This document shows, in pieces, positions 533 to 16,212 of a stretch of DNA of 38,451 bases. Within the stretch, counting starts at the first letter, position 1; every line of letters begins with the position of its first letter. The stretch is taken from the NCBI GenBank assembly GCA_021205485.1, contig JAJPXK010000128.1, positions 1-38,451 of the forward strand. Reading direction: 5' to 3'. The position numbers and the translations under genes are program-made. The stretch comes from Clostridia bacterium. Its GTDB lineage: Bacteria; Bacillota; Clostridia; Christensenellales; Borkfalkiaceae. The notes below the pieces were generated by a model, which saw only the letters and a list, made by a program, of their open reading frames with translations, was not told the origin of the DNA and ran no database searches.

Positions 533-544
533 AAAATACAATTT

Positions 545-577
545 AAAAGCCTTCCTTGTTATTTAAGGAAGGCTTTT
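545..577. terminator. Bidirectional intrinsic terminator between convergent genes
   Basis: Perfect 13-bp stem: aaaagccttcctt (545-557) pairs with aaggaaggctttt (565-577), with a 7-nt loop. An A-tract on one arm and a T-tract on the other give a U-tail in either direction. Confidence 0.65.
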
Positions 578-589
578 ATTATGCCTTTG

Positions 590-2767
590 TTACATCGCTA
601 AAATTTTGTCCACTTCTTCGTAAAGGCTTTCCTTAGACATAGAGCCTTCGGTCATATACTGAATAACACCGTCGCTGTCAAGTATGGCCGTTATAGGGTA
701 GCCGTTTGAGCCGCCAAGCTCAAGGAAGTACTGCGTATCTTCGGTATCTATCGTCCACGTAACCGATTCATAGAAGTCAGTCCATTTTTTATCTTTTGTT
801 ATATAATCCTCTATATAGTAATTGCCCGATTTCTTTACGGTAAGGGCTTCGTTGCGGTACGAGTCATTGCCCGCGTGTATAACCACCACCGAAACCTTGT
901 CGGAATAATTTTCGTCTGTAGCCAGTTCGCCGAAGTGAGGCAACTCCTCCTCGCAGCCGCTGCAGCCTATATACCAGAAATTAAGTATAACTATTTTGCC
1001 GTCGTCCAGATCGTCCTGAAGCGTATATGTATCGTCATCTTCGCCGAAAAACTTCTGCGAAGTAAAATCGTGATATTGTTCGCCTACAGAATAAACATAT
1101 TCGGCCTCTACGTCCTCTGCGATAAAGTTATAGTAAACCAGTGCCGCCGCGAGGACTATCAGGGCGAGTATCCATGCGCATATCTCCAGAACCTTGTTGC
1201 GTTTCTTCTGATAAGCAATAGTCTTATGATATGCCTTCTTTTTGGCCTTGATTTCGGCCTTTGACGGCGTTAAAGCCATTTCTTCGTCTGTTCGTCCGTC
1301 CGCCGCGATTTCAGCCGTCACAGCCTCGTTTTCGGCGTCAGCATTTGTTTCAGATTCAGGTTCGCCGAATATAGAGAGCTGTTCGTCTCCGTTGTCGGCA
1401 GTTTCCGAAGCGGAGTCTTCCGCGAAAGCCTGTCCGTCCGCCGCGACATATTCACCTTTGCCCTTTGACAAGGTAAGGGCGAACGTACCGTCCTTCCTCT
1501 GCAGATATATCATAGCGGCGCGGTCCTTTGCGGCCTCCTGCACATACTGCAGGGCGAACGCGCGGTTGATAAACTTTTTATTTCCGCCGGCGAATCTTAC
1601 CTGCCATACGCCGTTTTTATTGAATACATAAAATATCCTTATACGGCTGTCTGCCTCGGCCTCAACGTTTGGATGTTCGGCAGCTTCCGCAGTTTGTACA
1701 TTCAAAACCGCCTTATCTGCCGCGGCATTTTCTTTAGCCGTATTTTCTGTTGCTACATTTTCAGAAGTTACGTTTGCGTTGCCGCCCGCAGCGATGGCGA
1801 TCGTTCCGCCGTTTGCCGTACTGCTTGCGAGAAGGGAGGCAAGCGCCACCTTTTCGCCCGAAGCGTCCTCTCCTCCTTCTTCTATTGCGTTAGGATGAAG
1901 GAATATCTTGCTGCCCTTCCAGCTTATGGCGTGCGTAGGGCAGACCTTTAAGCAGTCGCCGCAGTTTATGCACTCATGGTCGCCTACGTGTTTTATATCC
2001 ATTTTACAGGTCTGTATGCACAGCCCGCAATCCACGCATTTTTGCTTGTCGAGCTTTATGCCTATCATCGCCACGCGGCAGAAAAAGCTGTATATGGCGC
2101 CGAGCGGACAAATAAAACGGCAGAAAAGCCTGTAAATAAATATACAGCCCGTTACGATAAGAACCATCAGGCAGAACTTCCACACAAACACGGCGCCGAG
2201 CATCTCCCATGTGGTAGAGGCCGTAGAAGGGTTGGCGAGCAGAGATATCGCCCCCTCTATAACGCCGAACGGGCAAAGATATTTGCAAAACGCCGGTACT
2301 GTAGTTGAATAAGCTATAGGTATTAAAATGACAAAGGCTACTAAAATTACATATTTTAAATACGAAAGCACCCTTGTAACTTTATTCTTTTTAAGCTTAG
2401 GCGATTTTATCTTATAAAGCAGGTCCTGCAACAGCCCGAAAGGGCATAAAAAACCGCAGATGGTCCTGCCTAAAATAAGGCCGAATAAAATAAGTATGCC
2501 TAATACATAAAACGGGGCCCTGGTATCTGAATTGGCGAGGGCGTTTTGCAGAGAGCCGAGCGGACACGAACCTACAGCCCCGGGGCAGGAATAACAGTTA
2601 AACCCTGGCACGCAGACATACTTTGAATTTCCCTTATATATGTTGCCGGATACAAACCCCTTGATATTTGCGTTATACAAAAGGGCGGCGTATACCTGTA
2701 TAAGTCTTCTCTTGGTAGGCTTGTGCCTTACAAACCAATCTTTTATTTTACCGAAAAACTTTTTCAT
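590..2767 (-). CDS. Fusion protein: NapH/COG0348-like polyferredoxin membrane domain, 2x[4Fe-4S] ferredoxin motif, DUF2188-like domain, TM anchor, TlpA/ResA-like thioredoxin domain
   Basis: The N-terminal half has CxxCP-type motifs (FNCYSCPGAVGSCPLG, FLCPFG, YLCPFG, FICPLG) in TM segments. A ferredoxin dicluster follows: CVDCGLCIQTC...CINCGDCLKVCP (res 244-277). An A/E/N-rich linker leads to VFNKNGVWQVRFAGGNKKF...EAAKDRAAMIYLQRKDGTF (res ~375-432). A TM helix (res ~527-549) precedes the motif ILNFWYIGCSGCEEELPHF, whose CSGC is encoded at 953-964. The ATG lies 1 nt after the upstream gene's stop. Confidence 0.8.
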   Translation of the reverse strand: MKKFFGKIKDWFVRHKPTKRRLIQVYAALLYNANIKGFVSGNIYKGNSKYVCVPGFNCYSCPGAVGSCPLGSLQNALANSDTRAPFYVLGILILFGLILGRTICGFLCPFGLLQDLLYKIKSPKLKKNKVTRVLSYLKYVILVAFVILIPIAYSTTVPAFCKYLCPFGVIEGAISLLANPSTASTTWEMLGAVFVWKFCLMVLIVTGCIFIYRLFCRFICPLGAIYSFFCRVAMIGIKLDKQKCVDCGLCIQTCKMDIKHVGDHECINCGDCLKVCPTHAISWKGSKIFLHPNAIEEGGEDASGEKVALASLLASSTANGGTIAIAAGGNANVTSENVATENTAKENAAADKAVLNVQTAEAAEHPNVEAEADSRIRIFYVFNKNGVWQVRFAGGNKKFINRAFALQYVQEAAKDRAAMIYLQRKDGTFALTLSKGKGEYVAADGQAFAEDSASETADNGDEQLSIFGEPESETNADAENEAVTAEIAADGRTDEEMALTPSKAEIKAKKKAYHKTIAYQKKRNKVLEICAWILALIVLAAALVYYNFIAEDVEAEYVYSVGEQYHDFTSQKFFGEDDDTYTLQDDLDDGKIVILNFWYIGCSGCEEELPHFGELATDENYSDKVSVVVIHAGNDSYRNEALTVKKSGNYYIEDYITKDKKWTDFYESVTWTIDTEDTQYFLELGGSNGYPITAILDSDGVIQYMTEGSMSKESLYEEVDKILAM

Positions 2768-2768
2768 A

Positions 2769-3599
2769 TTACGTCAACCCTATACATTCATAGCAAAGCG
2801 CCGCGGCCTTCTGAAAAACGCCTTCCGCGCCCCCGTTTGATACGCCTAAAATTATGAAAACCACCGCGACGACAAACAAAACGGTGCGTACTATCCACAA
2901 AGTAATGTCGCTTTCTGCGGCTGCGACCGCGGAATAATACATGCGTTGCAGCTTGTTATAAGAAGGGTCAACCTTTCTGCCGAGGGCCACCAGTCTTTTA
3001 ACGTGCGGAAGCTGCTGCTTCGCGCCCCAGCCCTCATAAATTACGGCGCCTATGCAGAGGGCGAAAGCGCTGATAACGTACGGAGAAATTTTTATAACGC
3101 AGGCGATAATCAGGCTGTTGCTGTCATTTTCGTCTGCGACGTTAAAATTATCCGCGTCCAGAAGATACGAAAGTCCCGCAATGGCAAATATAGCGCAAAA
3201 GGCCGCAACAACGCCCCACAATATCTTTAAAACGCGGGTGTATTCGGCCACCTTCGCGGCGTCCTCCAAAAGGTCGCCCTCGGCCTTTACGGGAAGCTTC
3301 TTTTTTAAGCGGTATAAAGAATATCTTACGTCCTGCCCGTACTTCTTTTTGCCCTTCGGGGGGAAAACTTCATACAGCACAAGGCCTATCAGAACGGCGG
3401 CAATCCACAGCCAGATTATAACCGAAATTTCGCCAAGGCGTTCGGCTGCTACGGCCCGCGTAAAGTTGCCTTTGCCGCCGCCTCCGCCGAAGTATATGTC
3501 GCACGCCTCGTATATAAACGAGGCCGCCAGAGCCGCGGTGATAAGGCTGAATATTATATTATATATAAGGCGGATGACGCGCCCTGCCTTTTCGGCCAT
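2769..3599 (-). CDS. Polytopic membrane protein (about 5 TM) with a C-terminal CxxC motif, function unknown
   Basis: GGAGAG RBS upstream of the ATG at 3599. Five hydrophobic segments. The C-terminus is ...AAALCYECIGLT, with CYEC encoded at 2784-2795. The stop is 1 nt from the start of the polyferredoxin-thioredoxin gene, suggesting translational coupling. Confidence 0.6.
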   Translation of the reverse strand: MAEKAGRVIRLIYNIIFSLITAALAASFIYEACDIYFGGGGGKGNFTRAVAAERLGEISVIIWLWIAAVLIGLVLYEVFPPKGKKKYGQDVRYSLYRLKKKLPVKAEGDLLEDAAKVAEYTRVLKILWGVVAAFCAIFAIAGLSYLLDADNFNVADENDSNSLIIACVIKISPYVISAFALCIGAVIYEGWGAKQQLPHVKRLVALGRKVDPSYNKLQRMYYSAVAAAESDITLWIVRTVLFVVAVVFIILGVSNGGAEGVFQKAAALCYECIGLT

Positions 3600-3728
3600 T
3601 TTTCACTCTCCGTTCAATAAATTATAATAGAATTATTATACCAACACACGGCCGAATAGTCAAGAAATTTATTATAAAGGTAATTTATAAGGGATATTTA
3701 ATATATTCAGCATAGTTTACGCGTTTGC

Positions 3729-3790: not shown

Positions 3791-5056
3791 ATGGAAAAGT
3801 CCGTCTACGACAAATACACCGCGATTTTAAAAGCCGAACTTCTGCCCGCGATGGGCTGCACCGAACCTATCGCGGTGGCGTACGCCGCCGCCCTGGCGAG
3901 GGCTACCCTTGAAGCTATACCCGAAAAGGTTGAAATATGCGTCAGCGGCAATATACTTAAAAACGTAAAGAGCGTAATAGTGCCTAACACAGGCGGCATG
4001 AGGGGCGTGGTAAGCGCCGCCGCCGCGGGCATTGTAGCGGGCGACGAAACAAAGCGGCTGCAGGTGCTTTCTGCCGTTGCGGAAAGCCAATATAAAGATA
4101 TAGAAAATTACATAAAAAACGCCGAATTTACGGTAATCAAGTCAAATTCGGGCTGTATCTTCGATATAGGCGTGACCGTTTGCAATAAAGAACACAGCGC
4201 GTACGTCCGCATAGCCGAAAGGCACACCAACGTTGTTCACGTAGAAAAGGACGGCCAGGCCATTATAGACAAATCCGCGGGCGAAGGCAAAGACGAAAAC
4301 AAGTCGGCGATGTCGGTCAAGGAAATAGTTGAATACGCCGACACCGTGGATATAAAGGAAATCGAAGAGGTTGTTTCCAGGCAGATAGAGTATAACTCAG
4401 CGATATCCGCCGAGGGTCTTAAAAACGACTACGGCGCCAGGATAGGCAAAATACTGCTGGCGAGCTTCGGCGACGGCGTTCACAACAAAGCCAAAGCCGC
4501 CGCGGCGGCGGGAAGCGACGCGAGAATGAACGGCTGCTCTCTGCCCGTAGTTATAGTATCGGGAAGCGGCAACCAGGGGATAACGGCCTCTATGCCCGTA
4601 ATTGTTTACGCCGAAAGCCTTGGCTCTTCAAGGGAACAGCTTTTGCGGGCGGTGGCCCTCTCTGACCTTGTAACAGTACATTTAAAGTCGGATATAGGGA
4701 GCCTTTCGGCCTACTGCGGAGCTGTAAGCGCGGGCTGCGGGGCCGCCGCGGGAATCTGCTATCTGCACGGCGGAAGGTATGACGAGATTGCGCATACCCT
4801 TGTGAACGCACTCGCCATAGATTCGGGCGTAATATGCGACGGGGCGAAATCGAGCTGCGCCGCGAAGATAGCATCCAGCGTGGAAGCGGGGCTTTTAGGC
4901 TTTGAAATGTATCGCAACGGCAGCCAGTTTTACGGCGGCGACGGCATTTTGGAAAAAGGCGTGGAGAATACCATACACAACGTAGGCGACCTCGCCCGCA
5001 TCGGCATGCGCGAAACCGACGAAGAAATTATAAAGATAATGATTAAGAATATATAA
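3791..5056 (+). CDS. yhaM: UPF0597/YhaM (CyuA)-family L-cysteine desulfidase (serine dehydratase alpha-like)
   Basis: Family hallmarks are present in order: LPAMGCTEPIAVAYAAA, GSDARMNG, VSGSGNQGITASMP, ICDGAKSSCAAK. The length (421 aa) is typical. Confidence 0.88.
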   Translation: MEKSVYDKYTAILKAELLPAMGCTEPIAVAYAAALARATLEAIPEKVEICVSGNILKNVKSVIVPNTGGMRGVVSAAAAGIVAGDETKRLQVLSAVAESQYKDIENYIKNAEFTVIKSNSGCIFDIGVTVCNKEHSAYVRIAERHTNVVHVEKDGQAIIDKSAGEGKDENKSAMSVKEIVEYADTVDIKEIEEVVSRQIEYNSAISAEGLKNDYGARIGKILLASFGDGVHNKAKAAAAAGSDARMNGCSLPVVIVSGSGNQGITASMPVIVYAESLGSSREQLLRAVALSDLVTVHLKSDIGSLSAYCGAVSAGCGAAAGICYLHGGRYDEIAHTLVNALAIDSGVICDGAKSSCAAKIASSVEAGLLGFEMYRNGSQFYGGDGILEKGVENTIHNVGDLARIGMRETDEEIIKIMIKNI

Positions 5057-6231: not shown

Positions 6232-6474
6232 TTACGGTTTGAGCCATATATAGGCCAAAAGAAACATCAGAAGCCCTACGACGATTATTATCCCTATTAC
6301 GGGGGCGAACGCCGCGAAGGCGCCGAGCATCATCTTGCGCTGTTCCTTTTTGCTTATCTTTTCTTGCTTGTCTTTATCCTTGCGGTGAGGGTTATACCAC
6401 CGCATGCCCTCTACGTTCATATCGGCGAACGTGGTTTCGGTGTCAAGCTCGTCGTCTTTACGCTTTCGCCGCAT
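6232..6474 (-). CDS. Small single-pass membrane protein with a polybasic/acidic N-terminal tail
   Basis: The ATG at 6474 has an AGGGGA RBS 5 nt upstream. The ORF-track start at 6510 is a TTG without a clear RBS. The C-terminal TM segment is LGAFAAFAPVIGIIIVVGLLMFLLAYIW. The gene overlaps the end of the upstream ATPase gene by 17 nt. Confidence 0.5.
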   Translation of the reverse strand: MRRKRKDDELDTETTFADMNVEGMRWYNPHRKDKDKQEKISKKEQRKMMLGAFAAFAPVIGIIIVVGLLMFLLAYIWLKP

Positions 6475-7675
6475 CGGTGTCCCCTGCTTTGTTCTCTTTT
6501 TCCGCCGCAAGCTTTAAAGCGGCTTCGGCCTGCTCCTTTTCAAGGCGGGCGTATTCCGCGTTCTCTTCCTCGGTATTGTAGAGGTGGCAGGCGCAGAAGT
6601 GCCCCTCCTCCACTTCCTTATATACGGGATCGAACTTGGAGCATATATCCATACAGCTTTCGCAGCGGGTATGGAATTTACAGCCCTTAGGAGGATTTAC
6701 AGGCGAGGGTATGTCGCCCTTTAAGATGATTCTGTTCATCTTTACGTGAGGGTTAGGCACGGGTACGGCGGAGAACAGGGCCTTGGTATAAGGGTGAAGG
6801 GTATTGTCAAAAATCCTCTCCTTAGAGCCGTATTCTACCATACTGCCGAGGTACATAACGCCTACGTCGTCGGATATGTGCTTTACAACCGACAGATCGT
6901 GCGAAATAAAGACATAAGTAAGCCCGAGCTCTTCCTGAAGCTCTTTAAGCATATTTATAATCTGCGCCTGGATAGAGACGTCCAGCGCGGAGACGGGCTC
7001 GTCGCAGATAACCAGTTCGGGCTTTAACGCGAGCGCCCTGGCTATACATATACGCTGCCTCTGCCCGCCCGAAAATTCATGAGGGTAACGCCCGTAATAA
7101 TGCGACTGCAGGCCGCACATCTTCATTACGTTTAAGACGTATTCCTGGTAATTTTCTTTGGTGCAAAGCTTATGGTGCAGGGCCGCCTCGCCTATTATCG
7201 CGCCTACCGTAAGACGGGGGGATAAACTTGCGTAAGGGTCCTGGAAAATCATCTGCATATTAGGGCGGAGTTTGTTGAATTCGCCCTCTGAAAGGGCGGA
7301 AACTTTTTGCCCTTTAAACCATACATCGCCGCCTGTGATGTCGTAAAGGCGTAAAACCGTTCTGCCCATAGTGGTTTTGCCGCATCCGCTTTCGCCTACT
7401 ATGCCAAGAGTCTTGCCCTTTTTTACTTTAAACGAAACGCCGTCCACCGCCTTTAAAAAAGCCGTAGGCTTGCCTAAAAGGTTTTTGTCCGTAACGAAAT
7501 ATTTTTTTAAATCCACAACCTCTAACAGGGGATCTGTCTCGGGGTCGTAAGGGCGGGTTTCGTACACCTGCCCCTTGCGGGTTTTTACCGTTTTTTCAGG
7601 CTTTTCTTCGGATATAACCCCGCCCGCGGGAGTTCCGGCGGTTTCATCGGTTAAGTTTTTAACTGTTTCTTCCAT
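6458..7675 (-). CDS. Opp/Dpp-type peptide ABC transporter ATP-binding protein (OppF-like) with N- and C-terminal extensions
   Basis: Walker A GESGCGKTT, signature FSGGQRQR, Walker B LVICDEPVSALD. The oligopeptide C-terminal domain with Cys motifs is present (CKFHTRC..C...C). GAGGAG RBS. The gene overlaps the upstream ATPase gene by 17 nt. Confidence 0.9.
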   Translation of the reverse strand: MEETVKNLTDETAGTPAGGVISEEKPEKTVKTRKGQVYETRPYDPETDPLLEVVDLKKYFVTDKNLLGKPTAFLKAVDGVSFKVKKGKTLGIVGESGCGKTTMGRTVLRLYDITGGDVWFKGQKVSALSEGEFNKLRPNMQMIFQDPYASLSPRLTVGAIIGEAALHHKLCTKENYQEYVLNVMKMCGLQSHYYGRYPHEFSGGQRQRICIARALALKPELVICDEPVSALDVSIQAQIINMLKELQEELGLTYVFISHDLSVVKHISDDVGVMYLGSMVEYGSKERIFDNTLHPYTKALFSAVPVPNPHVKMNRIILKGDIPSPVNPPKGCKFHTRCESCMDICSKFDPVYKEVEEGHFCACHLYNTEEENAEYARLEKEQAEAALKLAAEKENKAGDTDAAKA

Positions 7676-8993
7676 CAGTTTTCTCCTCGTCGGGCGCCGC
7701 TTTCGCAGCCATATCTCTGTACAGATAGCAGGAAACGCTGTGCGTGTCGCTCACCTTGATAAGTTCGGGATATTCGCCGGCGCACTCCTCCTTGCACATC
7801 TCGCATCTGTCGCGGAAATAGCAATAATTCGGCATATCTATAGGGTTAGGAACAAAGCCCGGTATGCAGTAGAGCTTGTCTACGTCGCCGTCTACGGTAG
7901 GCTTGCTCTTTTGCAGGCCTATGGTGTACGGGTGAAGGGGCCTGTCGTAGATATCCTCCGCCGTGCCCATCTCTATAATCTTGCCCGCGTACATTACAAC
8001 CACGTAGTCGGCCATCTCGGCCACAACGCCTAAATCGTGCGTAATAAGCATAATGCTGCCATTTATCTTGCCCTTGATCTCCCTTAAAAGGTCGAGTATC
8101 TGAGCCTGTATGGTAACGTCAAGCGCGGTGGTAGGTTCGTCGGCGACTATTAAACGCGGGTTGCACAACAGGGCCATGGCTATCATAACCCTCTGGCGCA
8201 TACCGCCCGAAAGCTCGTGCGGGTATTTTTTATACACGCCCTCGGGGTCGGCGATTCCTACTAAGTTGAGCATTCTTATGCTGTGCTCTTTGACGTCTTT
8301 TTTGGATATTCCCTGTATATGAAGCCTGCCTACCTCGTCAAGCTGGTTGCCTATGGTAAACACGGGGTTTAAAGAGGTCATCGGCTCCTGGAAAATCATA
8401 GAAATTTCCCTGCCGCGGATCATTCGCATAATCTCGGTAGGCATTTTTGCGATGTCTACAACCTTTTCTTCCATCTCGTAGACATAGCCGCCAAGCTCGT
8501 TCCTCTTTATTACAGGCTTGCCCTTGCTGTTGAGTTTAGGCTTCTCTACCCCGTCTACCACTTCCGTCTCGTATACGGGTATCTTTTTGCCGTGTTTATC
8601 GAGCTTGAACATATTGGAGCGGAAGCGTATGCTGCCGCTTACAATCTGGCCGCTCGGGGCCTGCACAAGCTGCATAAGCGAAAGGGAAGTTACGCTTTTG
8701 CCGCAGCCGCTTTCGCCTACCACGCCTACGGTAGAGCCCGCGGGTATGTTGAAAGTAACGCCGTTTACCGCCTTGACCGTACCGGTATCGGTAAAAAAGT
8801 AGGTGTGAAGGTCCTCAAACTCTACGATGTTGTTCGGGTCCTTCATTTCGGTGACGTACTCGCTTTCCTTCGCCTTGCGTTTTTTGTACTTTTCGTACTT
8901 TCGCATCTGCCTGGAATTTTCTTTGGCGATGGCCTTTGACTCTTTGCCCGTTATATAATGCTGTTTGCTTTCCTCTTTAAGATTATCAGCCAT
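7659..8993 (-). CDS. Opp/Dpp-type peptide ABC transporter ATP-binding protein (OppD-like) with a lysine-rich N-terminal extension and an internal insertion
   Basis: Walker A GESGCGKSV, signature LSGGMRQR, Walker B LIVADEPTTALD, and PYT...C.FRDRC in the C-terminal domain. The ATG lies 3 nt after the permease stop. Confidence 0.9.
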   Translation of the reverse strand: MADNLKEESKQHYITGKESKAIAKENSRQMRKYEKYKKRKAKESEYVTEMKDPNNIVEFEDLHTYFFTDTGTVKAVNGVTFNIPAGSTVGVVGESGCGKSVTSLSLMQLVQAPSGQIVSGSIRFRSNMFKLDKHGKKIPVYETEVVDGVEKPKLNSKGKPVIKRNELGGYVYEMEEKVVDIAKMPTEIMRMIRGREISMIFQEPMTSLNPVFTIGNQLDEVGRLHIQGISKKDVKEHSIRMLNLVGIADPEGVYKKYPHELSGGMRQRVMIAMALLCNPRLIVADEPTTALDVTIQAQILDLLREIKGKINGSIMLITHDLGVVAEMADYVVVMYAGKIIEMGTAEDIYDRPLHPYTIGLQKSKPTVDGDVDKLYCIPGFVPNPIDMPNYCYFRDRCEMCKEECAGEYPELIKVSDTHSVSCYLYRDMAAKAAPDEEKTDGRNS

Positions 8994-8996
8994 ATG

Positions 8997-10115
8997 CTAC
9001 CTCTTCATTTTCGGGTCGAAGGCGTCCCTCAGTCCGTCGCCGACAAAGTTAAACGCAAGCACCGCCAGCGTTATGCACACGCCCGCGCCAAGCCAGAAGT
9101 TCGGGTAATACTTAAGGTTAGACATATTCGACGCAGTTTCTATCATGGTGCCCCATGTGGCCGTGCCTAAAGGCGCGCCAAGCCCTAAGTAACCTAAAGT
9201 CGCCTCCATAAGTATTACGCTGCCAAGGCCTAAAGTCATCGAGACGATAAGCTGAGGTATAACGTTCGGGATAAGATGCCTGAATATTTTTGAACTTGTG
9301 GACAGACCCGAACACTTTGCGGCGAGCATAAAGTCTTGCTCCCTCAGGGATAGGATCTGCCCTCGGACAAGCCTCGCCGTGCCGCCCCAGCTCATAAGAG
9401 ACAGAATAAGCATCATATAATACAGCTTGTCTATCGTGGTTATGTTGTCGAAAACTACCGACAGAATTAAAAGTATAGGCAGCGACGGTATGCAGGCCAA
9501 TACGTCTACAATACGCATTATAAGGTTGTCTACCCAGCCGCCGAAGTAACCGGCGAGGCCGCCGAGCACAACGCCTATAGCCGTCTCTACAATAACTACA
9601 ACAAAGCCTATGGTAAGCGATACCCTGCCGCCGTACATAAGGCGGGTGAATATATCCCAGCCGTGAGAGTCGGTGCCCATCCAGTGGTCCCAGCTTATGC
9701 CCGCGTTGGCGTTGTTTGCGGGGGTTGTTTCGCTTACAAAGTAAACGTAATGTATGATAAGGTCGCCGCTTTCGTCGTAAACAAGGTTGCCAGCGGCGTC
9801 TCTTTCGTAGTAAGACGTCAGAAGGTCAAATACATAAATAGTGCTGTTGGAATCTACGTTGAAGTCAACTTGTTTTTCACCCCAGGGCGAGAAAAGCGGG
9901 CCTACAAAGCAGAATAAAACAAGTAAAAGCAATATTACAAGCCCTATTACCGAAAGTTTGGAACGGAAAAACCTTTTGGCTACCGTACGCCCGGGCGATA
10001 AAACCTTGACCCTGTCGTTTAAATTTACGCCGTGGAGATTGTCGTTGAAGTTTCCGCCTTCTTCCGAGGGGTTCTCCGCCGCCTCGGGGGCGTTGTCTAA
10101 TTTTTTATCTTCCAT
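8997..10115 (-). CDS. Opp/Dpp-type ABC transporter permease (OppC/DppC-like)
   Basis: Contains GTDSHGWDIFTRLMYGGRVSL and the EAA-like loop (REQDFMLAAKCSGLSTSKIFRHLIPN) typical of binding-protein-dependent family permeases. Six TM-like segments. Confidence 0.9.
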   Translation of the reverse strand: MEDKKLDNAPEAAENPSEEGGNFNDNLHGVNLNDRVKVLSPGRTVAKRFFRSKLSVIGLVILLLLVLFCFVGPLFSPWGEKQVDFNVDSNSTIYVFDLLTSYYERDAAGNLVYDESGDLIIHYVYFVSETTPANNANAGISWDHWMGTDSHGWDIFTRLMYGGRVSLTIGFVVVIVETAIGVVLGGLAGYFGGWVDNLIMRIVDVLACIPSLPILLILSVVFDNITTIDKLYYMMLILSLMSWGGTARLVRGQILSLREQDFMLAAKCSGLSTSSKIFRHLIPNVIPQLIVSMTLGLGSVILMEATLGYLGLGAPLGTATWGTMIETASNMSNLKYYPNFWLGAGVCITLAVLAFNFVGDGLRDAFDPKMKR

Positions 10116-10124
10116 AACTCACCT

Positions 10125-11129
10125 CTATTTCGTAAGTTTGACGCGGGGGTCAACCAATGCGTACGCAAGGTCGGATAGCAGTATGCCTATAACTGTAAGC
10201 ACGGCGATAAACATGTTGTACCCCATTATAAAGGGTATATCGCCCGCGCTCAGCGCCGAATACGCTATGTTGCCTATGCCCGGCAGGTTGAATACAGTCT
10301 CGGTAATCATCGCGCCGCCGAAAAGCCCCGGCAGCGTGCCTGCTAGCATCGTAACAAGCGGTATCATAGTGTTGCGGAAAACGTGTTTATACACAACCTT
10401 AGTTTCTGAAAGGCCCTTGGCCCTCGCCGTACGTATATAATCTGCCGACAGAACTTCAAGCGTGTTGGTACGCATATATCTTATGGTAGAACCTACATTC
10501 AGAACAACAAGCACAAACATTGGCAAAACAAGGTGCCAGAGCATATCGCCGAGGCGTTCCCAGAAGGTGGCGTCTGTAGGAAGGTCTGCCGAATACAGGC
10601 CGCCCGAGGCGTCAAACCAGCCTAAATCCACGCCGAACCACTTTATAAGAAGGTTGCCGAGGAAGAACGAAGGGAACGAGATGCCAATCATAACCAATAC
10701 CGTAACAACGTAGTCAAGCTTGCCGTACTGGTTGCAGGCGCATTTGATGCCGAGGGGAATGGCTATTATAAGCTCGAGTATGAGCGAAACAAAGGATATG
10801 CCGAAGGATACGCCCATGTTTTTGAATATCATATCGCTTACTTCCATGCCCGAAGTCCAGCTTGTTCCAAGGTCGCCCTGTAAAATATTGCCGAGCCAGG
10901 TAAAGTACCCCGTGATAATGCCTTTGAACGTGGTAACTTCTTCAAGCCCGTACGCCGCATAGAATTGCGCCTTGATTTCAGGGTCTAACGCGCCCGTTGT
11001 GGATAATGCCGCCAGCTTTGAGTCTATAATAGTTACAGGCATACATCTTACCAGAGCGTAAAGAATTACCGATACGCCGAACAAGATGAATACGGCAAGC
11101 AATAGCCTTTTGATTATATATTTTGCCAT
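10125..11129 (-). CDS. Opp/Dpp-type ABC transporter permease (OppB/DppB-like)
   Basis: MAKYIIKRLLLAVFILFGVSVILYALVR is a typical N-terminus. The EAA loop is ADYIRTARAKGLSETKVVYKHVFRN. I chose the ATG at 11129 (GGAG RBS at 11141-11144) over the ORF-track start at 11159. Confidence 0.9.
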   Translation of the reverse strand: MAKYIIKRLLLAVFILFGVSVILYALVRCMPVTIIDSKLAALSTTGALDPEIKAQFYAAYGLEEVTTFKGIITGYFTWLGNILQGDLGTSWTSGMEVSDMIFKNMGVSFGISFVSLILELIIAIPLGIKCACNQYGKLDYVVTVLVMIGISFPSFFLGNLLIKWFGVDLGWFDASGGLYSADLPTDATFWERLGDMLWHLVLPMFVLVVLNVGSTIRYMRTNTLEVLSADYIRTARAKGLSETKVVYKHVFRNTMIPLVTMLAGTLPGLFGGAMITETVFNLPGIGNIAYSALSAGDIPFIMGYNMFIAVLTVIGILLSDLAYALVDPRVKLTK

Positions 11130-11224
11130 TGTGAGTAAAACTCCATAAATTCCCGTCACTTTTCCGTTTTTTGTAAGCGACGTTTGTGTGTTTTTGTTCT
11201 GTTTGAAACCCCGTCCACCGCAAG

Positions 11225-11410
11225 CGGTCCCCCCTCCCTAAAAGGGGAGGCTATATTGCGGTATTAAGGCTTCCCCTTGAGGGGAAGCTGTCACGTTAGT
11301 GACTGATGAGGTGTTTCTAAATAATTATGTTGCTCCACCGCTTTTACAAGGGCGGATTTTTCCACCTCATTCCCCCCTTCGGGGTACCTTCCCTTGAGGG
11401 GAAGGCAAGG
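11225..11410. repeat. Cluster of short hairpin repeat units (family 3: ccttcccc-loop-ggggaagg)
   Basis: cctccc/gggagg (11233-11250), cttcccc ttga ggggaag (11270-11287), gtcac gtta gtgac, cccc ttc gggg, and ccttcccttgaggggaaggcaagg (11388-11410). The same unit occurs at 5087-5114 and 37529-37560. Confidence 0.75.
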
Positions 11411-11413
11411 TCC

Positions 11414-11605
11414 GTCATTGCGAGCGTAGCGTGGCAATCTCGCGGGAGCGTTAGCGGCTCGCGGAAAGCCAAGCCATTTAAGGCTTCAGATTTCGTTTTC
11501 ACCTTATAATAAACGTTATTATTTTTAAATAACTAATGTGCAGCCAAGCCTGCTGGTCGCGAGTCCTCGCGGGATTGCCACGGGGTAGAGACCCCTCGCA
11601 ATGAC
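11414..11605 (+). mobile_element. MITE-like composite element, copy A (imperfect terminal inverted repeats of about 60 nt flanking an AT-rich core, no ORF)
   Basis: The left arm is gtcattgcgagcgtagcgtggcaatctcgcggg...cgcggaaagccaagcc. The right arm is ...ctggtcgcgagtcctcgcgggattgccacggggtagagacccctcgcaatgac, an imperfect inverted complement. The core ...ttattatttttaaat... aligns with copies B and C. Confidence 0.7.
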
Positions 11606-11625
11606 GCAGTGGCTTCTGCCCCTCT

Positions 11626-11677
11626 GTCATTCTGAGCGAAGTCGAAGAATCTCGCGGGTACCCGCGGAAAGCCAAGC
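11626..11677 (+). repeat. Solo left-arm-type repeat unit
   Basis: gtcattctgagcgaagtcgaagaatctcgcgggtacccgcggaaagccaagc has the same architecture as the left arms of the composite elements. It ends 16 nt from the SBP gene stop. Confidence 0.75.
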
Positions 11678-11692
11678 TTATTCAACTGCAAA

Positions 11693-14428
11693 TCAATTAT
11701 AGTCAATTTCCCAGATGCGGTCTACAAGAGAAGCGTAGCAAGAATAATCAAGGTTTAACGTACTCTTGTTTATAACCACCTGGTTGAACACCTCGTTATC
11801 CTTCCTCTGGTAGGTAGGCAGTTCCACCGCAAGCTCCATTACATAGTCCAAAGCCGTGCTGTAGTATGCCTTTCTTGAAGACTGAAGGTTGGTTTCCCTC
11901 GCCTTGTCTATAACGTCGCTGAGTTTAACTATAATGTTGTATTCGTAAGACCATTTCGTAGGGTTGGCTAAAATTTCGGAATAGTTCCAGTTGTTGACGC
12001 TGCTCGCGGTGCTGTCCATATGGTAAACCTGATACATATCGGGGTCTACTGCGGAAGTCCAAGCCGCCGCCCATACTTCAAGGTTGCCCGTTGTGAGCTT
12101 ATTGAGGGCCGTAGTATCTGTTTTAACGGTGATATCAAAGCCGCACTGTTCAAGAATTTCTTCCGCCTGCGTAAACATATCGTAAGCGGGGTGGTCGGTG
12201 GTGTCGCCAGCTATGGTAAACGTAAACTTACAGGTGGTTGTTCCGTTTGTATAGATGCCGTCGCTGCCAAGTTTATAACCCGCGCTCTCTACCAGTTCTG
12301 TTATCGTTGACACGCTGGTAGTATATTTATAGTACGCCGTGCAGTTTTCGGGATAGGCCCAGGAGGTCTTGCTCATCGGGCGGTAGATAGTCTGCGAATA
12401 CGCCGTAGAGTAATATAATGTTGTAGGCAGCGAGGTATTCATCGCCATCATAATGGCCTGCCTTATTTCTACGTCGGGCACATATTTAGGGTTGACGCCT
12501 ACATAGCCGTAGCCGCTTGTGTCGTACAGCGTTGATGAGTCAAGGCTGGAATACCTATTTAGTTCTTGCTTGTTTGTGGTTGTCGCCGAAGGCGTGCCGT
12601 AGTCTACATTGTTCGTAGTAAGGGCGTTTACTACGCTGTTGTCGCTCATTTCGATATATCTTACATATTTTATAATGGCATTGTGTATGCCGGTGCCCGT
12701 TGTATAGAAATTAGTATTGCGGACGTAGTAAACCGTCTTGTTGGTCCAGAAAGTATCTTTTGTGCCATCGCCGCCGCTTGAGTCGGAGGCCTTGTAGGGG
12801 CCCGCGCCTACGGGCAAGCCGTTTTTGGCTGTCGCCTGCACTACTGAAGAATAGAAGTCGCTTCTGCCGTATTCCACACCGAATTCGGTAAGGGTGTATT
12901 TATCACCCTTTTCGTAAGCTGTTTTATAAGCCGCGTAGTCGGCTTCAGCGGCCGCAACATAATCCTTTGTCACATTGGTTTCAGGGTCTGTCCATGTGCC
13001 TGAATAATAATGAAGGGGACATACTGTAAACGCAAAGTTGTACAAAGCTTTAGGGTCAACGCCGTTTATTCTTATTTTTAATACGTCGTAATCTGCGCCA
13101 AGGTCGGTGCCGTTGAAGGAAGATACCCTCTCTACCGTTACGCCCGAGATTGTTTCTACCTGAAGCGAACCGTCGTCCTTTTTAAGGCTTGCAAAGTAGG
13201 CGCTCCTGGCCTCGCTGGCAAATTCGGTGACGGCGTTGCTCGCCGTGCCCCAGTACTGACAGATTTTTTTCAGATCGGTTTTATTGGTATTGGCCGATCC
13301 ATAGCCGCCTGTCATGGTTTCCCATACGTAGTTTATACAGAAGTCGCGCACAACGCACTCTATGGCGTTTTTTTCGGTATAGCCCTTATCTATATAAGCC
13401 TGTATGGCCTGAGTATCTGCCTTGGCGTCTGCTATATCTTCGGCGTAAGATGTTTCATCGTTAAGGGTTGTAACATATTTTCCGTCGCCATCCTTTTTTT
13501 CTACCGAGGCGCCGTTTTCATTCTTTTCGTACACGACTTCTATTACGCCTTCCTGAAGGTAATAGTACTGCCATGTTTCGGTAAAACTGTATTCAAAGGT
13601 ATCTTTATCGCGGCTGCCGAAGGTTTCTTCCGCGGTGGTCCAGTCAGAAGTAACTTCCTCTAAAAACAGCTCTTTTACAGTCTCGATATCGGCGAGAACC
13701 TGTTCTTCGTTATTAACCGTTTCTCCGTTGCAGTAGTCTATAATATCGTTGAGCCTCTGCTGGCCCTCGGTATTGAATGTTTCTGTAATCGAGTTTGTGG
13801 AATCGTCGTCAAGAGTAGGGTCCTGCGCGCGGTATGCCTTTAAACCCTGTATATCGTTGGAATAGAGGGTAGCCGAGCCCGTGTACGCCGTATCGATATT
13901 TACATACAGGCTGAAGAGCACGTCCATTACAGTGAGGTCGTAGCCGTCAGAGAACTTCATTCCGTTTTTAATAAGGAAGGAGTATTCGGTATATTCGGTA
14001 TTGCTGCTTGTAGCTACGTCCTGCGACATTACGTTGCCTTCTTCGTCGTATGATACCATAGTATAGTCTTTAACTACGGTAGGGTAATTTTCGCCGCAGA
14101 CAATGTTGCCGTTCTTATCGGTAGAGAGCATGCTGACCTGCGTCATGGATATTACAGTGCCGTCGTTGTTAGACGTGTAAAAGAAGGGGTTAAAGTTGCC
14201 GTCTATAGTGCTTATCGCCATTGTAAAGGGGCGGGTTTCGGCGTCGTAGCTTGTAGCGGTGCTTACGCCGTCTACCCCGACATCAGACGAGGATGATGAG
14301 GATGAAGACGAGGCCGAAGACGAATCGCTGGCGCTGGTGCCTGCGCCGCCGTCGCATCCCGTAATGGCAGAAACCGTAAGCAATGCGGCCGCAGCCAGAA
14401 CTAATCCTGTTTTGAGAAACTTTTTCAT
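11693..14428 (-). CDS. Oversized ABC transporter substrate-binding lipoprotein, family 5 (peptide/nickel, OppA-like)
   Basis: I chose the ATG at 14428 (GGAGGA RBS at 14439-14444). The product is MKKFLKTGLVLAAAALLTVSAITGC with a lipobox, then a poly-Ser linker. Family-5 motifs are present: GAGPYK, GYGYVGVNPKYVPDVEIRQAIMMAMN, NNVDYG. At 911 aa it is far longer than the usual 500-600 aa. Confidence 0.85.
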   Translation of the reverse strand: MKKFLKTGLVLAAAALLTVSAITGCDGGAGTSASDSSSASSSSSSSSSDVGVDGVSTATSYDAETRPFTMAISTIDGNFNPFFYTSNNDGTVISMTQVSMLSTDKNGNIVCGENYPTVVKDYTMVSYDEEGNVMSQDVATSSNTEYTEYSFLIKNGMKFSDGYDLTVMDVLFSLYVNIDTAYTGSATLYSNDIQGLKAYRAQDPTLDDDSTNSITETFNTEGQQRLNDIIDYCNGETVNNEEQVLADIETVKELFLEEVTSDWTTAEETFGSRDKDTFEYSFTETWQYYYLQEGVIEVVYEKNENGASVEKKDGDGKYVTTLNDETSYAEDIADAKADTQAIQAYIDKGYTEKNAIECVVRDFCINYVWETMTGGYGSANTNKTDLKKICQYWGTASNAVTEFASEARSAYFASLKKDDGSLQVETISGVTVERVSSFNGTDLGADYDVLKIRINGVDPKALYNFAFTVCPLHYYSGTWTDPETNVTKDYVAAAEADYAAYKTAYEKGDKYTLTEFGVEYGRSDFYSSVVQATAKNGLPVGAGPYKASDSSGGDGTKDTFWTNKTVYYVRNTNFYTTGTGIHNAIIKYVRYIEMSDNSVVNALTTNNVDYGTPSATTTNKQELNRYSSLDSSTLYDTSGYGYVGVNPKYVPDVEIRQAIMMAMNTSLPTTLYYSTAYSQTIYRPMSKTSWAYPENCTAYYKYTTSVSTITELVESAGYKLGSDGIYTNGTTTCKFTFTIAGDTTDHPAYDMFTQAEEILEQCGFDITVKTDTTALNKLTTGNLEVWAAAWTSAVDPDMYQVYHMDSTASSVNNWNYSEILANPTKWSYEYNIIVKLSDVIDKARETNLQSSRKAYYSTALDYVMELAVELPTYQRKDNEVFNQVVINKSTLNLDYSCYASLVDRIWEIDYN

Positions 14429-14469
14429 TAAAGTTATTCCTCCGTTTTGTTTATGTTCACGGCAACCAG

Positions 14470-16212
14470 TCACTCTGTAGCCGTTATATCTGTTATAGCA
14501 GTTGTTCCGTTAATTATAACGGTGTAATTTGTAACCGTGGCGCCGCCGTACGTCGCCGCAAAAGCTGCGTCCGTTTCGTCGTCGGCGTGGTCTATGCCGT
14601 ACAGCCAGTTGTCATCTTCATAAGAGCTGGTCAATTCCCTTATATTCAGTACTACAAGCGAATCCTGGCCGCTGATGGTAAAGGTTACATTATTTATATT
14701 CAGCCCGTTTATCTGCGTTGAGCCGCTTGAAGCCAGCACCGAGCTGAAAAGCAGATAGGCGTAAATTCTTGTGCCTTTTGCCGTGTAAGTTACGTTAAGG
14801 TTATCGATATACAGGTTGTTTATAACCGCCGATTTGTTTAGCTGGCCGAATATTCCCGTGTAAGATTCGTATGCAAGGTCGGATGCCTTGTAAGTAAGGT
14901 TGCTCAACGTGTAACCATTGCCCTCTATCCTGGCGTTTAAAGCGCTTAAGGGCGAAAGATCGGTAATCTTGCTGCAGTCTATATCGTTCATAACATAATA
15001 GTTAACCGCGCTTCTGCTGCTAAGCATTGTTTTAACGTCGCTGTAACTCCTTACCAAAGTCCAGTCGCCGGGGATATAGCAAGCGTATATACTTATATAC
15101 TTTTCTTCGTCAGAGGCACCGTCGGCGGGCTTTTTAAACATAGCGCCGTTTACAGCGTTTGTGCAGTCTGCGTCGTAATAGTAGCCTACAAACGTGGCGT
15201 CGTCTACCGTAGCGGTTGAATTTATAAGAATTGTGACTTCTTCCGAGTCGGAACGCTGTATATAGTAATAAGAAAGGTCGGTGGATATATTGTCGTAATA
15301 TTCCGAAGCGATATAGTCGCCTTCCTCATATACCGCGCTTTCGCCGCTTACGGTTATGGTGATGCTGTCTGCCTCGTAGCCGTCTACGCCGTGCAATATA
15401 GCCACATAATACCTTATGCACGCAGATTCTGACCACTTGGCGGCGACATACAGGTGGCTGTCGTCTTCAAGTTCAAAACTGCTGAGGACTTCTTCGCCGT
15501 ACTGCACTGAGGGGAAGCTTACCGTGCCGTCGTACTTTTTAGCGTCGGCGAGCAGGTCGTAATCTTCCTGAGTGATGAGCCATGCGTCGTCGTTTTCTAT
15601 AAAGTCATCCTTTACTATAGATACGGTAAACGATTTGGCGGGCGAGGTTATGGTAACCGAATAGGTGTATTCTGAAGAACTTACCTTGGTAAATCCTGCA
15701 AGTTCTTCTTCGGTTATGTCAAGCACAAAGTACAGCGTGCCCTCTTCTACCGCGTTGCCGTCTTCATCCAGTACAGTTTCGCCGTCGGTCCTCTGCAAAA
15801 CTTCGTACCAGCCGACAAGCTCGTAATTAGAACGGCTTACGTACCTTGCCACGCTGCCCGAACTGGAAGAATCGGAAGACGAACTGTCGTCGGAAGTATC
15901 TGCAGATGAGTCGGTAGAAGAATCGTCCGCCGACGAGTCTGACGCGTCGCTTGAAGAAGACGAACTGTCGGAAGACGTAGAACCGTCTTTGGTGATTACG
16001 CTGTAAAAAGTAGAACCTGTAGTATATTCAAGCGTCATACTTACGGCGCTGTCGAAATAACCGCCGTTGCCGTAGTATGTTACGCTGGCCGTAGTGTTGT
16101 AGTAGTCGCGGTACTGGTCTATGCCGTCAAGGCCTATAGAACACCCCGCGAACATACACACTGCGGCGCATATGGCAAGAACTATTACAAGTTTTAGCCT
16201 TAGTTTACTCAT
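14470..16212 (-). CDS. Surface lipoprotein with a Ser/Asp-rich linker, Listeria-Bacteroides (InlB B-type) repeat-like motifs and a beta-helix/GLUG-protein-type N-cap module
   Basis: Lipobox MFAGC. AAGGAG RBS. The ATG overlaps the stop region of the upstream giant gene. YELVGWYE and ATFVGYYYDADC resemble the GW(Y)-type repeat. NARIEGNGYTLSNLTY...GIFGQLNKSAVINNLYIDNLNV parallels FNGNGKTMSNFVL...GLFG in the 1463-aa protein. Confidence 0.75.
   Translation of the reverse strand: MSKLRLKLVIVLAICAAVCMFAGCSIGLDGIDQYRDYYNTTASVTYYGNGGYFDSAVSMTLEYTTGSTFYSVITKDGSTSSDSSSSSSDASDSSADDSSTDSSADTSDDSSSSDSSSSGSVARYVSRSNYELVGWYEVLQRTDGETVLDEDGNAVEEGTLYFVLDITEEELAGFTKVSSSEYTYSVTITSPAKSFTVSIVKDDFIENDDAWLITQEDYDLLADAKKYDGTVSFPSVQYGEEVLSSFELEDDSHLYVAAKWSESACIRYYVAILHGVDGYEADSITITVSGESAVYEEGDYIASEYYDNISTDLSYYYIQRSDSEEVTILINSTATVDDATFVGYYYDADCTNAVNGAMFKKPADGASDEEKYISIYACYIPGDWTLVRSYSDVKTMLSSRSAVNYYVMNDIDCSKITDLSPLSALNARIEGNGYTLSNLTYKASDLAYESYTGIFGQLNKSAVINNLYIDNLNVTYTAKGTRIYAYLLFSSVLASSGSTQINGLNINNVTFTISGQDSLVVLNIRELTSSYEDDNWLYGIDHADDETDAAFAATYGGATVTNYTVIINGTTAITDITATE

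Follow-up and report, generated by a model that had tools for sequence, protein, structure and literature searches.

A candidate iron-sulfur-driven route to an extracytoplasmic dithiol: a NapH-like polyferredoxin-thioredoxin fusion and its CxxC-tailed membrane partner in gut Clostridia

We analyzed a stretch of 38,451 nucleotides (nt) from a Clostridia bacterium of the Borkfalkiaceae (contig JAJPXK010000128.1), which as a whole we call the window, with a focus on two genes that occupy positions 590..3599 of its minus strand. The upstream open reading frame (ORF) encodes a membrane protein of 276 residues with a CxxC motif in its C-terminal tail; the downstream ORF encodes a protein of 725 residues, in which a NapH-like membrane polyferredoxin and a thioredoxin domain are joined in one chain (Table 1). 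At the junction, which reads GGG TTG ACG TAA T ATG AAA, the genes are separated by 1 nt, as stated in a preliminary description of the locus. A promoter-like site, which matches 11 of 12 consensus positions and has an extended -10 element, is located 36 nt before the first ATG, and a ribosome-binding site (GGAGAG) precedes this ATG, at position 3599, by 7 nt. With these two signals before them and a terminator-like hairpin after them, the genes appear to form a bicistronic operon that is complete in itself, between a divergent gene of the SDH_alpha family and a lipoprotein gene; because the latter is convergent, the hairpin may act for both strands. Rfam families gave no match across the whole window, neither to a riboswitch nor to another regulatory RNA.

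The N-terminal part of the fusion protein is a polyferredoxin of the NapH type. It matches Fer4_5 with 48.3 bits (cut-off 22); the NapH/MauN model TIGR02163, which aligns to residues 83-283, and NF007013 (quinol dehydrogenase NapH) score below their cut-offs (64.3 bits against 213.05 and 48.7 bits against 234, respectively). The translation contains three CX3CP motifs (C104/C108, C161/C165, C216/C220) and, in the first loop, the motif C52-x5-C58-x2-C61-P-x5-C68-P, which includes CYSCP. Alignment of 22 homologues showed no variation at any of the 18 cysteines that the NapH-like and ferredoxin parts contain, among them all eight cluster cysteines (C244, C247, C250, C254, C266, C269, C272, C276), or at the two cysteines of the thioredoxin domain. 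The NapH/COG0348-like domain, the cysteine motifs and the 2x[4Fe-4S] site of the preliminary description are thus borne out by the Fer4_5 match and by the translation. A sequence search of PDB yielded thioredoxin-fold and ferredoxin matches only; for the membrane core, no homologue of known structure was found.

The fusion is widespread. A search with the 725-residue protein against clusters formed at 90% identity returned 4,301 protein clusters at E ≤ 1e-5, and all of the 120 best clusters listed carry both Fer4_5 and Redoxin/AhpC-TSA. Among the matches listed, the fused homologues are mostly 540-600 residues long and come from metagenome-assembled genomes (MAGs) of Clostridia; their source annotations are only '4Fe-4S binding protein', 'redoxin family protein' or 'ferredoxin/thiol-disulfide isomerase'. 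When one genome per species was scanned, at least 591 species genomes were found to encode a relative. We compared the neighborhoods (±8 kb) of the best 80 of these loci, which are almost all from gut Christensenellales-type MAGs such as Borkfalkiaceae, Coproplasma and Scatosoma; some statistics refer to 90 loci. In about 13 of the 80, the thioredoxin part lies in a different reading frame: 12 loci have a separate thioredoxin ORF of 200 residues, with its own signal anchor, that overlaps the end of the NapH-like gene. The parts are also split at a further locus beside these 80 (L086), where the system consists of three genes, of 45, 333 and 280 residues. That the NapH-like and thioredoxin parts occur both fused and split speaks for a functional linkage of the two. 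An assembly or frameshift artefact, which the preliminary description had named as a possible source of the fusion, is ruled out, since the fusion recurs across thousands of clusters and in hundreds of genomes.

Some homologues carry a second thioredoxin-like domain (P0043, P0071, P0106, P0088), which has lost its CxxC in P0043, P0071 and P0106, and further multi-Redoxin proteins are encoded directly downstream of the system at L085 (4420..7077) and L086 (7977..). Together, these second domains and downstream proteins suggest arrays of external thioredoxin domains that may be fed by one membrane module. On an Oscillospiraceae contig (L084), the small CxxC gene and the thioredoxin gene are separated by an interval (1634..2440) without a called gene; on related contigs this place is taken by the NapH-like part, and the locus may be a disrupted copy of the module.

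One part of the fusion as first described does not belong to the conserved system. Of the four parts then listed, the membrane polyferredoxin, the single transmembrane (TM) anchor and the thioredoxin domain stand, but the DUF2188-like domain between the first two is a marginal match (21.1 bits, just under the cut-off of 22). Its AlphaFold2 model is a β-β-α-β-β arrangement of low confidence. The segment, bordered by a low-complexity acidic or Ala-rich linker, was seen in the window protein alone and has no counterpart in 21 aligned homologues or in the 80 genome loci; the cytoplasmic linker is in any case of variable length, and some homologues have a second, degenerate thioredoxin-like domain in place of the segment. 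Because of this absence, we reject a functional role in the system and consider the segment to be, by all appearances, a lineage-specific insertion.

The C-terminal domain of the fusion scores above the cut-offs of Redoxin (35.5 bits against 26.6) and AhpC-TSA (29.2 against 26), in both cases over residues 561-717. Curated models of narrower scope score below theirs: ResA-like NF002854 reaches 43.3 bits against 170, DsbE 27.6 against 123, TlpA 20.6 against 230 and StoA 20 against 210. The active-site stretch, NFWYIGCSGCEEELP, contains C602 and C605 (NFWYIGC602SGC605EEELP), and C602, C605, E608, P610, P691 and T693 are invariant in the 22-homologue alignment. Over 90 loci, CxxC is found in all 90, CxPC in 72 (CGPC in 32) and ExP in 89. 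The closest solved relatives are ResA (4nmu, E 2.4e-16), 2yp6, 4hqz, TlpA, StoA and DipZ, where 2yp6 and 4hqz are thioredoxin family proteins that we take to be Etrx of S. pneumoniae. AlphaFold2 models the domain with a predicted local distance difference test score (pLDDT) of 80-95. Judged by its motifs, the active site is of the reductant type and carries the ResA/TlpA signature.

The match to AhpC-TSA above cut-off raises the alternative of a thiol peroxidase, which would detoxify external peroxide with the Fe-S (iron-sulfur) module as its reductant, and strict gut anaerobes would gain from such an oxidant defence in the envelope. Yet the site combines WxxxCxxC with E-x-P and a cis-Pro-Thr, as in TlpA and ResA, and not the PxxxT/SxxC of peroxiredoxins, and the best solved matches are all thiol-disulfide oxidoreductases. 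We consider a peroxidase very improbable and rejected the peroxiredoxin reading on the active-site motifs.

The same motifs bear on the direction of electron flow, which the architecture by itself leaves unfixed. The external thioredoxin could be a DsbA-like, disulfide-forming oxidase that the NapH-like module re-oxidizes in the manner of DsbB or VKOR, with electrons passing inward to the Fe-S clusters and from there to a cytoplasmic acceptor, an arrangement that would serve organisms without quinones. In line with this, the window contains no gene for DsbB or VKOR, and the neighboring lipoproteins sometimes have a cysteine pair that might form a structural disulfide. However, an active site of CxPC, often CGPC, followed by the E-x-P of ResA and TlpA is unlike the CPHC of DsbA, and the nearest solved relatives are reductants. 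The energetics, too, speak against inward flow: such dithiols have potentials of about -120 to -270 mV and ferredoxin-type clusters of about -400 mV; transfer from the dithiol to the clusters would be uphill, and reduction of the external domain from the clusters is thermodynamically downhill. We regard inward flow as quite unlikely and infer that electrons move outward.

The second gene of the operon encodes the partner of the fusion. The preliminary description correctly gave it five TM helices, which we recover from hydropathy, and a CYEC motif; this motif (C269/C272) does not end the protein, as had been stated, but sits five residues before the C-terminus. Among the partner's residues, only the last TM helix and the ...KAINICTECIGLG tail are conserved. 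In 31 homologues they follow the pattern R238...G252..N255...K264-A265..I-C269-T-E271-C272-I-G-L-G, with R238, G252, K264, A265, C269, E271, C272, I273, G274 and L275 invariant; the four N-terminal helices are variable and the other cysteines of the partner are not conserved. The tail reads ...FQKAAALCYECIGLT in the window and ...DVLxKAIxICTECIGLG in the family consensus. Residues 240-275 match NF040920 (CD1871A family CXXC motif-containing protein) with 36.7 bits (cut-off 32), and the protein has no Pfam family match. The AlphaFold2 model (pLDDT 74.5) shows five long helices plus a tail helix, for which a comparison with PDB folds gave no match better than E 0.5. A hidden analogue of CcdA, DsbB or VKOR was considered and rejected, as the partner has neither a family nor a fold match of this kind and only its last helix and tail are conserved.

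The pairing of the two genes is strict. In profile searches, the partner has 2,644 representative clusters at E ≤ 1e-3, of which 888 are at E ≤ 1e-30, nearly all of 255-300 residues. With tblastn, a partner homologue was located directly upstream of the fusion, on the same strand, in 78 of the 80 loci, mostly with a gap of -8 to +20 nt. The two loci without a match have less than 170 nt of contig upstream, so that all 78 testable loci are paired, which answers the question of co-occurrence posed in the preliminary description. The partner is also the only universal neighbor, since no conserved third gene was found across the 80 neighborhoods.

Searches with a profile of the tail alone found 99 proteins of only 31-77 residues, consisting of a short positive N-terminus, one TM helix and the tail. 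In four of four sampled loci, from Oscillospiraceae, Blautia, Clostridiales and Lachnospiraceae, small partners of 45-50 residues are encoded directly upstream of a Fer4_5-Redoxin fusion or of a split pair, mostly overlapping or abutting the fusion gene. Typical members of the CD1871A family are such small stand-alone forms of 40-50 residues, to which the window partner adds four poorly conserved N-terminal TM helices. As only the last helix and the tail are conserved, and as small forms stand alone beside fusions, the functional partner appears to be a single-helix CxxC-tailed subunit, of which the window protein is an N-terminally expanded form.

Many of the stand-alone CxxC-tail proteins (P0165, P0167, P0171, P0176, P0184 and others) bear the name 'thioredoxin' in NCBI records. 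With 40-50 residues they fall far short of a thioredoxin fold, and the name is a misnomer, an annotation error that hides the family. CD1871 of C. difficile 630 lies in a conjugative transposon, a location that is uninformative on function.

The topology of both proteins was judged by hydropathy and the positive-inside rule across the family. For the partner, the rule holds in all 85 of the 85 members with five predicted helices; the median number of lysines and arginines is 25 in the N-terminus, loop 2 and loop 4 and 5 in loop 1, loop 3 and the tail, which places the N-terminus inside and the tail outside. For the fusion, the corresponding medians of segments predicted inside are 8 at the N-terminus (21 residues), 7 in the loop after TM2 (26 residues), 6 after TM4 (31 residues) and 6 before the anchor (21 residues), and those of segments predicted outside are 3 in loop 1 (45 residues), 1 in loop 3 (41 residues) and 1 after the anchor (21 residues). 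This is the pattern of the NapH topology. For the flanks of the anchor, the median net charge is +4 (N side) and -1 (C side), and the N side is the more positive one in 81 of 90 loci; in the window protein the charges are +6 and -4. Further, the split thioredoxin ORFs start with a typical N-in signal anchor. Since the Fe-S domain must be cytoplasmic and is followed by exactly one helix, the thioredoxin domain is predicted to face outward, in agreement with the preliminary description. For NapH itself, Brondijk et al. are said to have demonstrated in 2004, by experiment, that both termini and the clusters are cytoplasmic. In the relative PceC, the first outer loop contains a domain whose outward orientation has been demonstrated (PMC5928378).

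Which of these traits are shared with known proteins? According to a proposal by Meheust et al. 2021, NapH-like proteins of thousands of gene clusters transfer electrons through the membrane to FMN (flavin mononucleotide) domains on the extracytosolic side, and no thioredoxin-linked form is described among them (PMC8238504). The concept of a NapH-like trans-membrane conduit therefore has precedent, and both the parts and the idea are already known. Modules of the NapH, NosR, PceC and RdhC type have the same four-helix core with two CX3CP motifs, the same cytoplasmic 2x[4Fe-4S] domain and an attached extracytoplasmic redox domain that is thought to receive electrons. Here, in contrast, the outside acceptor is a CxxC thioredoxin and not a covalent FMN domain or NapG, and the module has an obligatory CxxC-tailed partner and six extra invariant cysteines. 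FMN_bind families matched neither of the two proteins, and none of the ApbE, FMN_bind, nap, nos or rdh families was found among the other window ORFs of at least 150 residues. Unlike for NapH/MauN, the only conserved neighbor is the CxxC-tail gene, and the window has no nap genes.

NapH and YccM of E. coli share with the window protein an RR..Q motif in TM1, the two CX3CP motifs that follow TM2 and TM4, and the eight cysteines of the clusters. Both lack C52, C58, C61, C68 and C161/C165, as well as a thioredoxin domain and a tail partner, whereas an Oscillospiraceae protein and a split Clostridiales protein have all six extra outer-loop cysteines. The function of the CX3CP motifs was left unassigned for PceC and is a long-standing question for NapH, NosR and RdhC; disulfides were judged likelier than an extra cluster because NosR holds only about 8 Fe (PMC5928378). 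Our literature searches turned up no account of this architecture or of the CD1871A family, which agrees with the earlier impression that the system is not a recognized, characterized one. New here are a dithiol as acceptor, a CxxC-tail subunit that is obligatory, additional outer cysteines and the implied alternative to DsbD/CcdA, driven by ferredoxin or Fe-S clusters.

To our knowledge, all characterized extracytoplasmic thioredoxin-like reductants are re-reduced from cytoplasmic thioredoxin through the DsbD/CcdA family. Systems in which CcdA or DsbD serves TlpA, ResA or Etrx, such as CcdA-ResA of B. subtilis and CcdA-Etrx-MsrAB2 of S. pneumoniae, have the same end point as the one described here, an anchored, outward-facing CxxC domain in need of cytoplasmic reducing equivalents. 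They differ from it in three respects: the membrane component here is unrelated (neither protein matches PF02683 (DsbD/CcdA), even at E ≤ 1, and the partner has no fold match), the input would be Fe-S clusters or ferredoxin instead of cytoplasmic thioredoxin, and the acceptor is fused to the membrane component.

As the preliminary description had noted, the window has no gene of the DsbD/CcdA family, a result we obtained for ORFs of at least 150 residues. In the 80 neighborhoods, ORFs with four or more predicted TM helices form 32 clusters, and the ten polytopic ORFs whose size comes nearest to that of CcdA encode transporters, Lgt and similar proteins, none of them matching PF02683. Our scans covered the window and the neighborhoods of ±8 kb, and at the level of the genome 'non-CcdA' is a hypothesis. 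A ccdA gene may therefore lie elsewhere, and in a conventional supply its product, or a DsbD, would reduce the thioredoxin domain, with the NapH-like part and the tail protein merely co-localized and engaged in another function, for example the oxidation of quinol, CcoG-type metal reduction or redox sensing. The varied roles of COG0348 proteins, which include NapH, NosR, RdhC proteins and CcoG, would accommodate this. However, the fusion in most lineages and the strict adjacency when it is split point to a direct functional coupling, the six outer-loop cysteines and the CxxC tail go with the thioredoxin-linked subfamily and not with NapH or YccM, and the scan of CcdA-sized ORFs yielded no CcdA-like gene. 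We find a conventional supply unlikely.

We favor, with somewhat more confidence than doubt, a reading in which cytoplasmic Fe-S input drives a trans-membrane relay of cysteines or clusters that reduces the external thioredoxin without DsbD or CcdA. A low-potential cytoplasmic donor, which we infer to be probably ferredoxin, would reduce the two [4Fe-4S] clusters, from where electrons would pass to the CX3CP pairs at the inner ends of TM2 and TM4. They would then cross the membrane to the six extra cysteines in two outer, probably re-entrant, loops, either by thiol-disulfide exchange or via additional membrane-embedded Fe-S clusters. These six cysteines, the CxxC of the partner and the CxxC of the thioredoxin domain come together on the predicted outer face, where the partner tail, presumably in contact with the fusion, may act as a further relay pair or may provide ligands that complete the outer site. 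Finally, the tethered TlpA/ResA-type CxxC would be reduced and would in turn reduce disulfides or oxidized thiols on envelope or external targets. The idea that Fe-S input feeds an extracytoplasmic dithiol, put forward in the preliminary description, is upheld as a candidate; a cytoplasmic thioredoxin domain, an artefactual fusion and a lack of conserved co-occurrence, any of which would have spoken against it, are not what we found.

Several points weigh against this mechanism. With an alignment of 22 sequences, the AlphaFold2 model of the membrane domain of the fusion has a pLDDT below 50 and is unusable. TM1 is weakly hydrophobic (mean Kyte-Doolittle value 0.82), and for this reason the outside location of the four-cysteine loop depends on the positive-inside rule and the analogy to NapH. 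The motifs of the window proteins themselves deviate from the consensus, with the minority variant CSGC in place of CxPC and a tail that ends in LT in place of LG. Searches of the literature yielded neither biochemical nor genetic evidence on any member, and a CcdA encoded elsewhere in the genome may reduce the thioredoxin domain in the ordinary way.

A chemical analogy, and no more than that, exists to ferredoxin:thioredoxin reductase (FTR) and to HdrB/HdrD, where an Fe-S cluster beside a cysteine pair turns one-electron input into two-electron disulfide reduction. We detected no sequence relationship to either, and FTR is soluble. The cysteine spacings of the module, C-x5-C-x2-C-P-x5-C-P and C-x3-C-P, are unlike the CPC/CHC pattern of FTR and the CCG pattern of Hdr.

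Table 1. Features of the two-gene locus and its flanks (positions in the window; TM, transmembrane; aa, residues)
Feature	Position	Strand	Basis or remark
Fusion gene, 725 aa: NapH-like polyferredoxin, linker, TM anchor, thioredoxin domain	590..2767	-	ORF, family matches, alignment
NapH-like membrane domain, residues 1-237, 4 predicted TM helices	2057..2767	-	Fer4_5 and TIGR02163 matches
Outer-loop cysteines (predicted) C52, C58, C61, C68	2555..2614	-	Invariant in 22 homologues
Outer-loop cysteines (predicted) C161/C165	2267..2287	-	Invariant in 22 homologues
CX3CP motif C104/C108, predicted inner end of TM2	2438..2458	-	Translation
CX3CP motif C216/C220, predicted inner end of TM4	2102..2122	-	Translation
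Cytoplasmic 2x[4Fe-4S] ferredoxin-type domain, residues 238-290	1898..2056	-	Fer4, Fer4_7, Fer4_9 matches
DUF2188-like insert in cytoplasmic linker, residues 376-434	1466..1642	-	PF09954, E 3.6e-4
Single TM anchor, residues 526-544	1136..1192	-	Hydropathy 2.75; predicted N-in/C-out
TlpA/ResA-type thioredoxin domain, residues 561-722	602..1087	-	Redoxin and AhpC-TSA matches
Active site C602-S-G-C605	953..964	-	Followed by E608-x-P610; cis-Pro loop P691-T693
Partner gene, 276 aa, 5 TM helices, predicted N-in with C-terminal tail outside	2769..3599	-	ORF, hydropathy, positive-inside rule
Partner conserved core, last TM helix and amphipathic tail, residues 231-276	2772..2909	-	NF040920 match, alignment
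Partner CxxC, C269/C272	2784..2795	-	Translation
Promoter-like site	3635..3663	-	TTGACT, 17 nt, TG-n-TATAAT; consensus match only
Intrinsic-terminator-like hairpin	544..578	-	14-bp stem, then T-run; 12 nt past fusion stop codon
Lipoprotein gene, 163 aa, CarboxypepD_reg-like domain, Cys pair C61/C71	41..532	+	Iterated hidden Markov model; convergent
SDH_alpha-family gene (UPF0597-type, GCTEP motif)	3791..5056	+	Divergent from operon

Two genes next to the operon recur at other loci. The convergent lipoprotein has no Pfam match, and its CarboxypepD_reg-like domain, a beta-sandwich, was recognized with an iterated hidden Markov model. With this model, 34 of 90 loci were found to have a lipoprotein gene of the same kind no more than 500 nt from the module, and 50 of 90 have one at a distance of up to 3 kb. 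These genes are mostly convergent and located downstream; in Lachnospiraceae (L087-L089) they directly precede the module in the same orientation. As a lead, we suggest that their products may be clients of the thioredoxin domain; a C-x4-C pair is present in only about one third of the CarboxypepD_reg-like domains. The divergent SDH_alpha/UPF0597 gene recurs in 13 of the 80 loci, which may merely reflect shared ancestry. The family includes L-cysteine desulfidases, and a link of cysteine catabolism to the reduction of external disulfides or cystine is conceivable.

Elsewhere in the window, an operon for an Opp-type ATP-binding cassette transporter (6458..14473, minus strand) includes an unusually long family-5 solute-binding protein of 926 residues, which SBP_bac_5 matches only over residues 547-823. 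It is preceded by an ORF of 580 residues (14470..16212) that has no family match. Two giant ORFs are located on the minus strand: the one at 16205..24295 encodes 2,696 residues with a subtilase S8 domain and seven BspA-type leucine-rich repeat blocks, and the one at 24398..28789 encodes 1,463 residues with no Pfam or NCBIfam match.

It is possible, though in our estimate somewhat short of an even chance, that the system represents a third distinct class for the export of reducing power to extracytoplasmic thiols beside DsbD/CcdA/ScsB, a ferredoxin- or Fe-S-driven trans-membrane disulfide reductase. If so, its machinery would combine a core of the NapH type with a very small CxxC-tailed subunit and a tethered thioredoxin, and it would give gut Clostridia that are poor in cytochromes and quinones a low-potential route for the reduction of envelope proteins or of external disulfides such as cystine. 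The system would then also show what the CX3CP motifs do across the NapH/NosR/RdhC superfamily, a question for which its acceptor, a covalently attached dithiol, is easy to assay; with two genes only, or three where the fusion is split, the system is suited to heterologous reconstitution. The replacement of thioredoxin by Fe-S clusters as the source of electrons, if true, would alter the view of thiol redox in the envelope of strict anaerobes, including the abundant and mostly uncultured Christensenellales, Oscillospiraceae and Lachnospiraceae of the gut.

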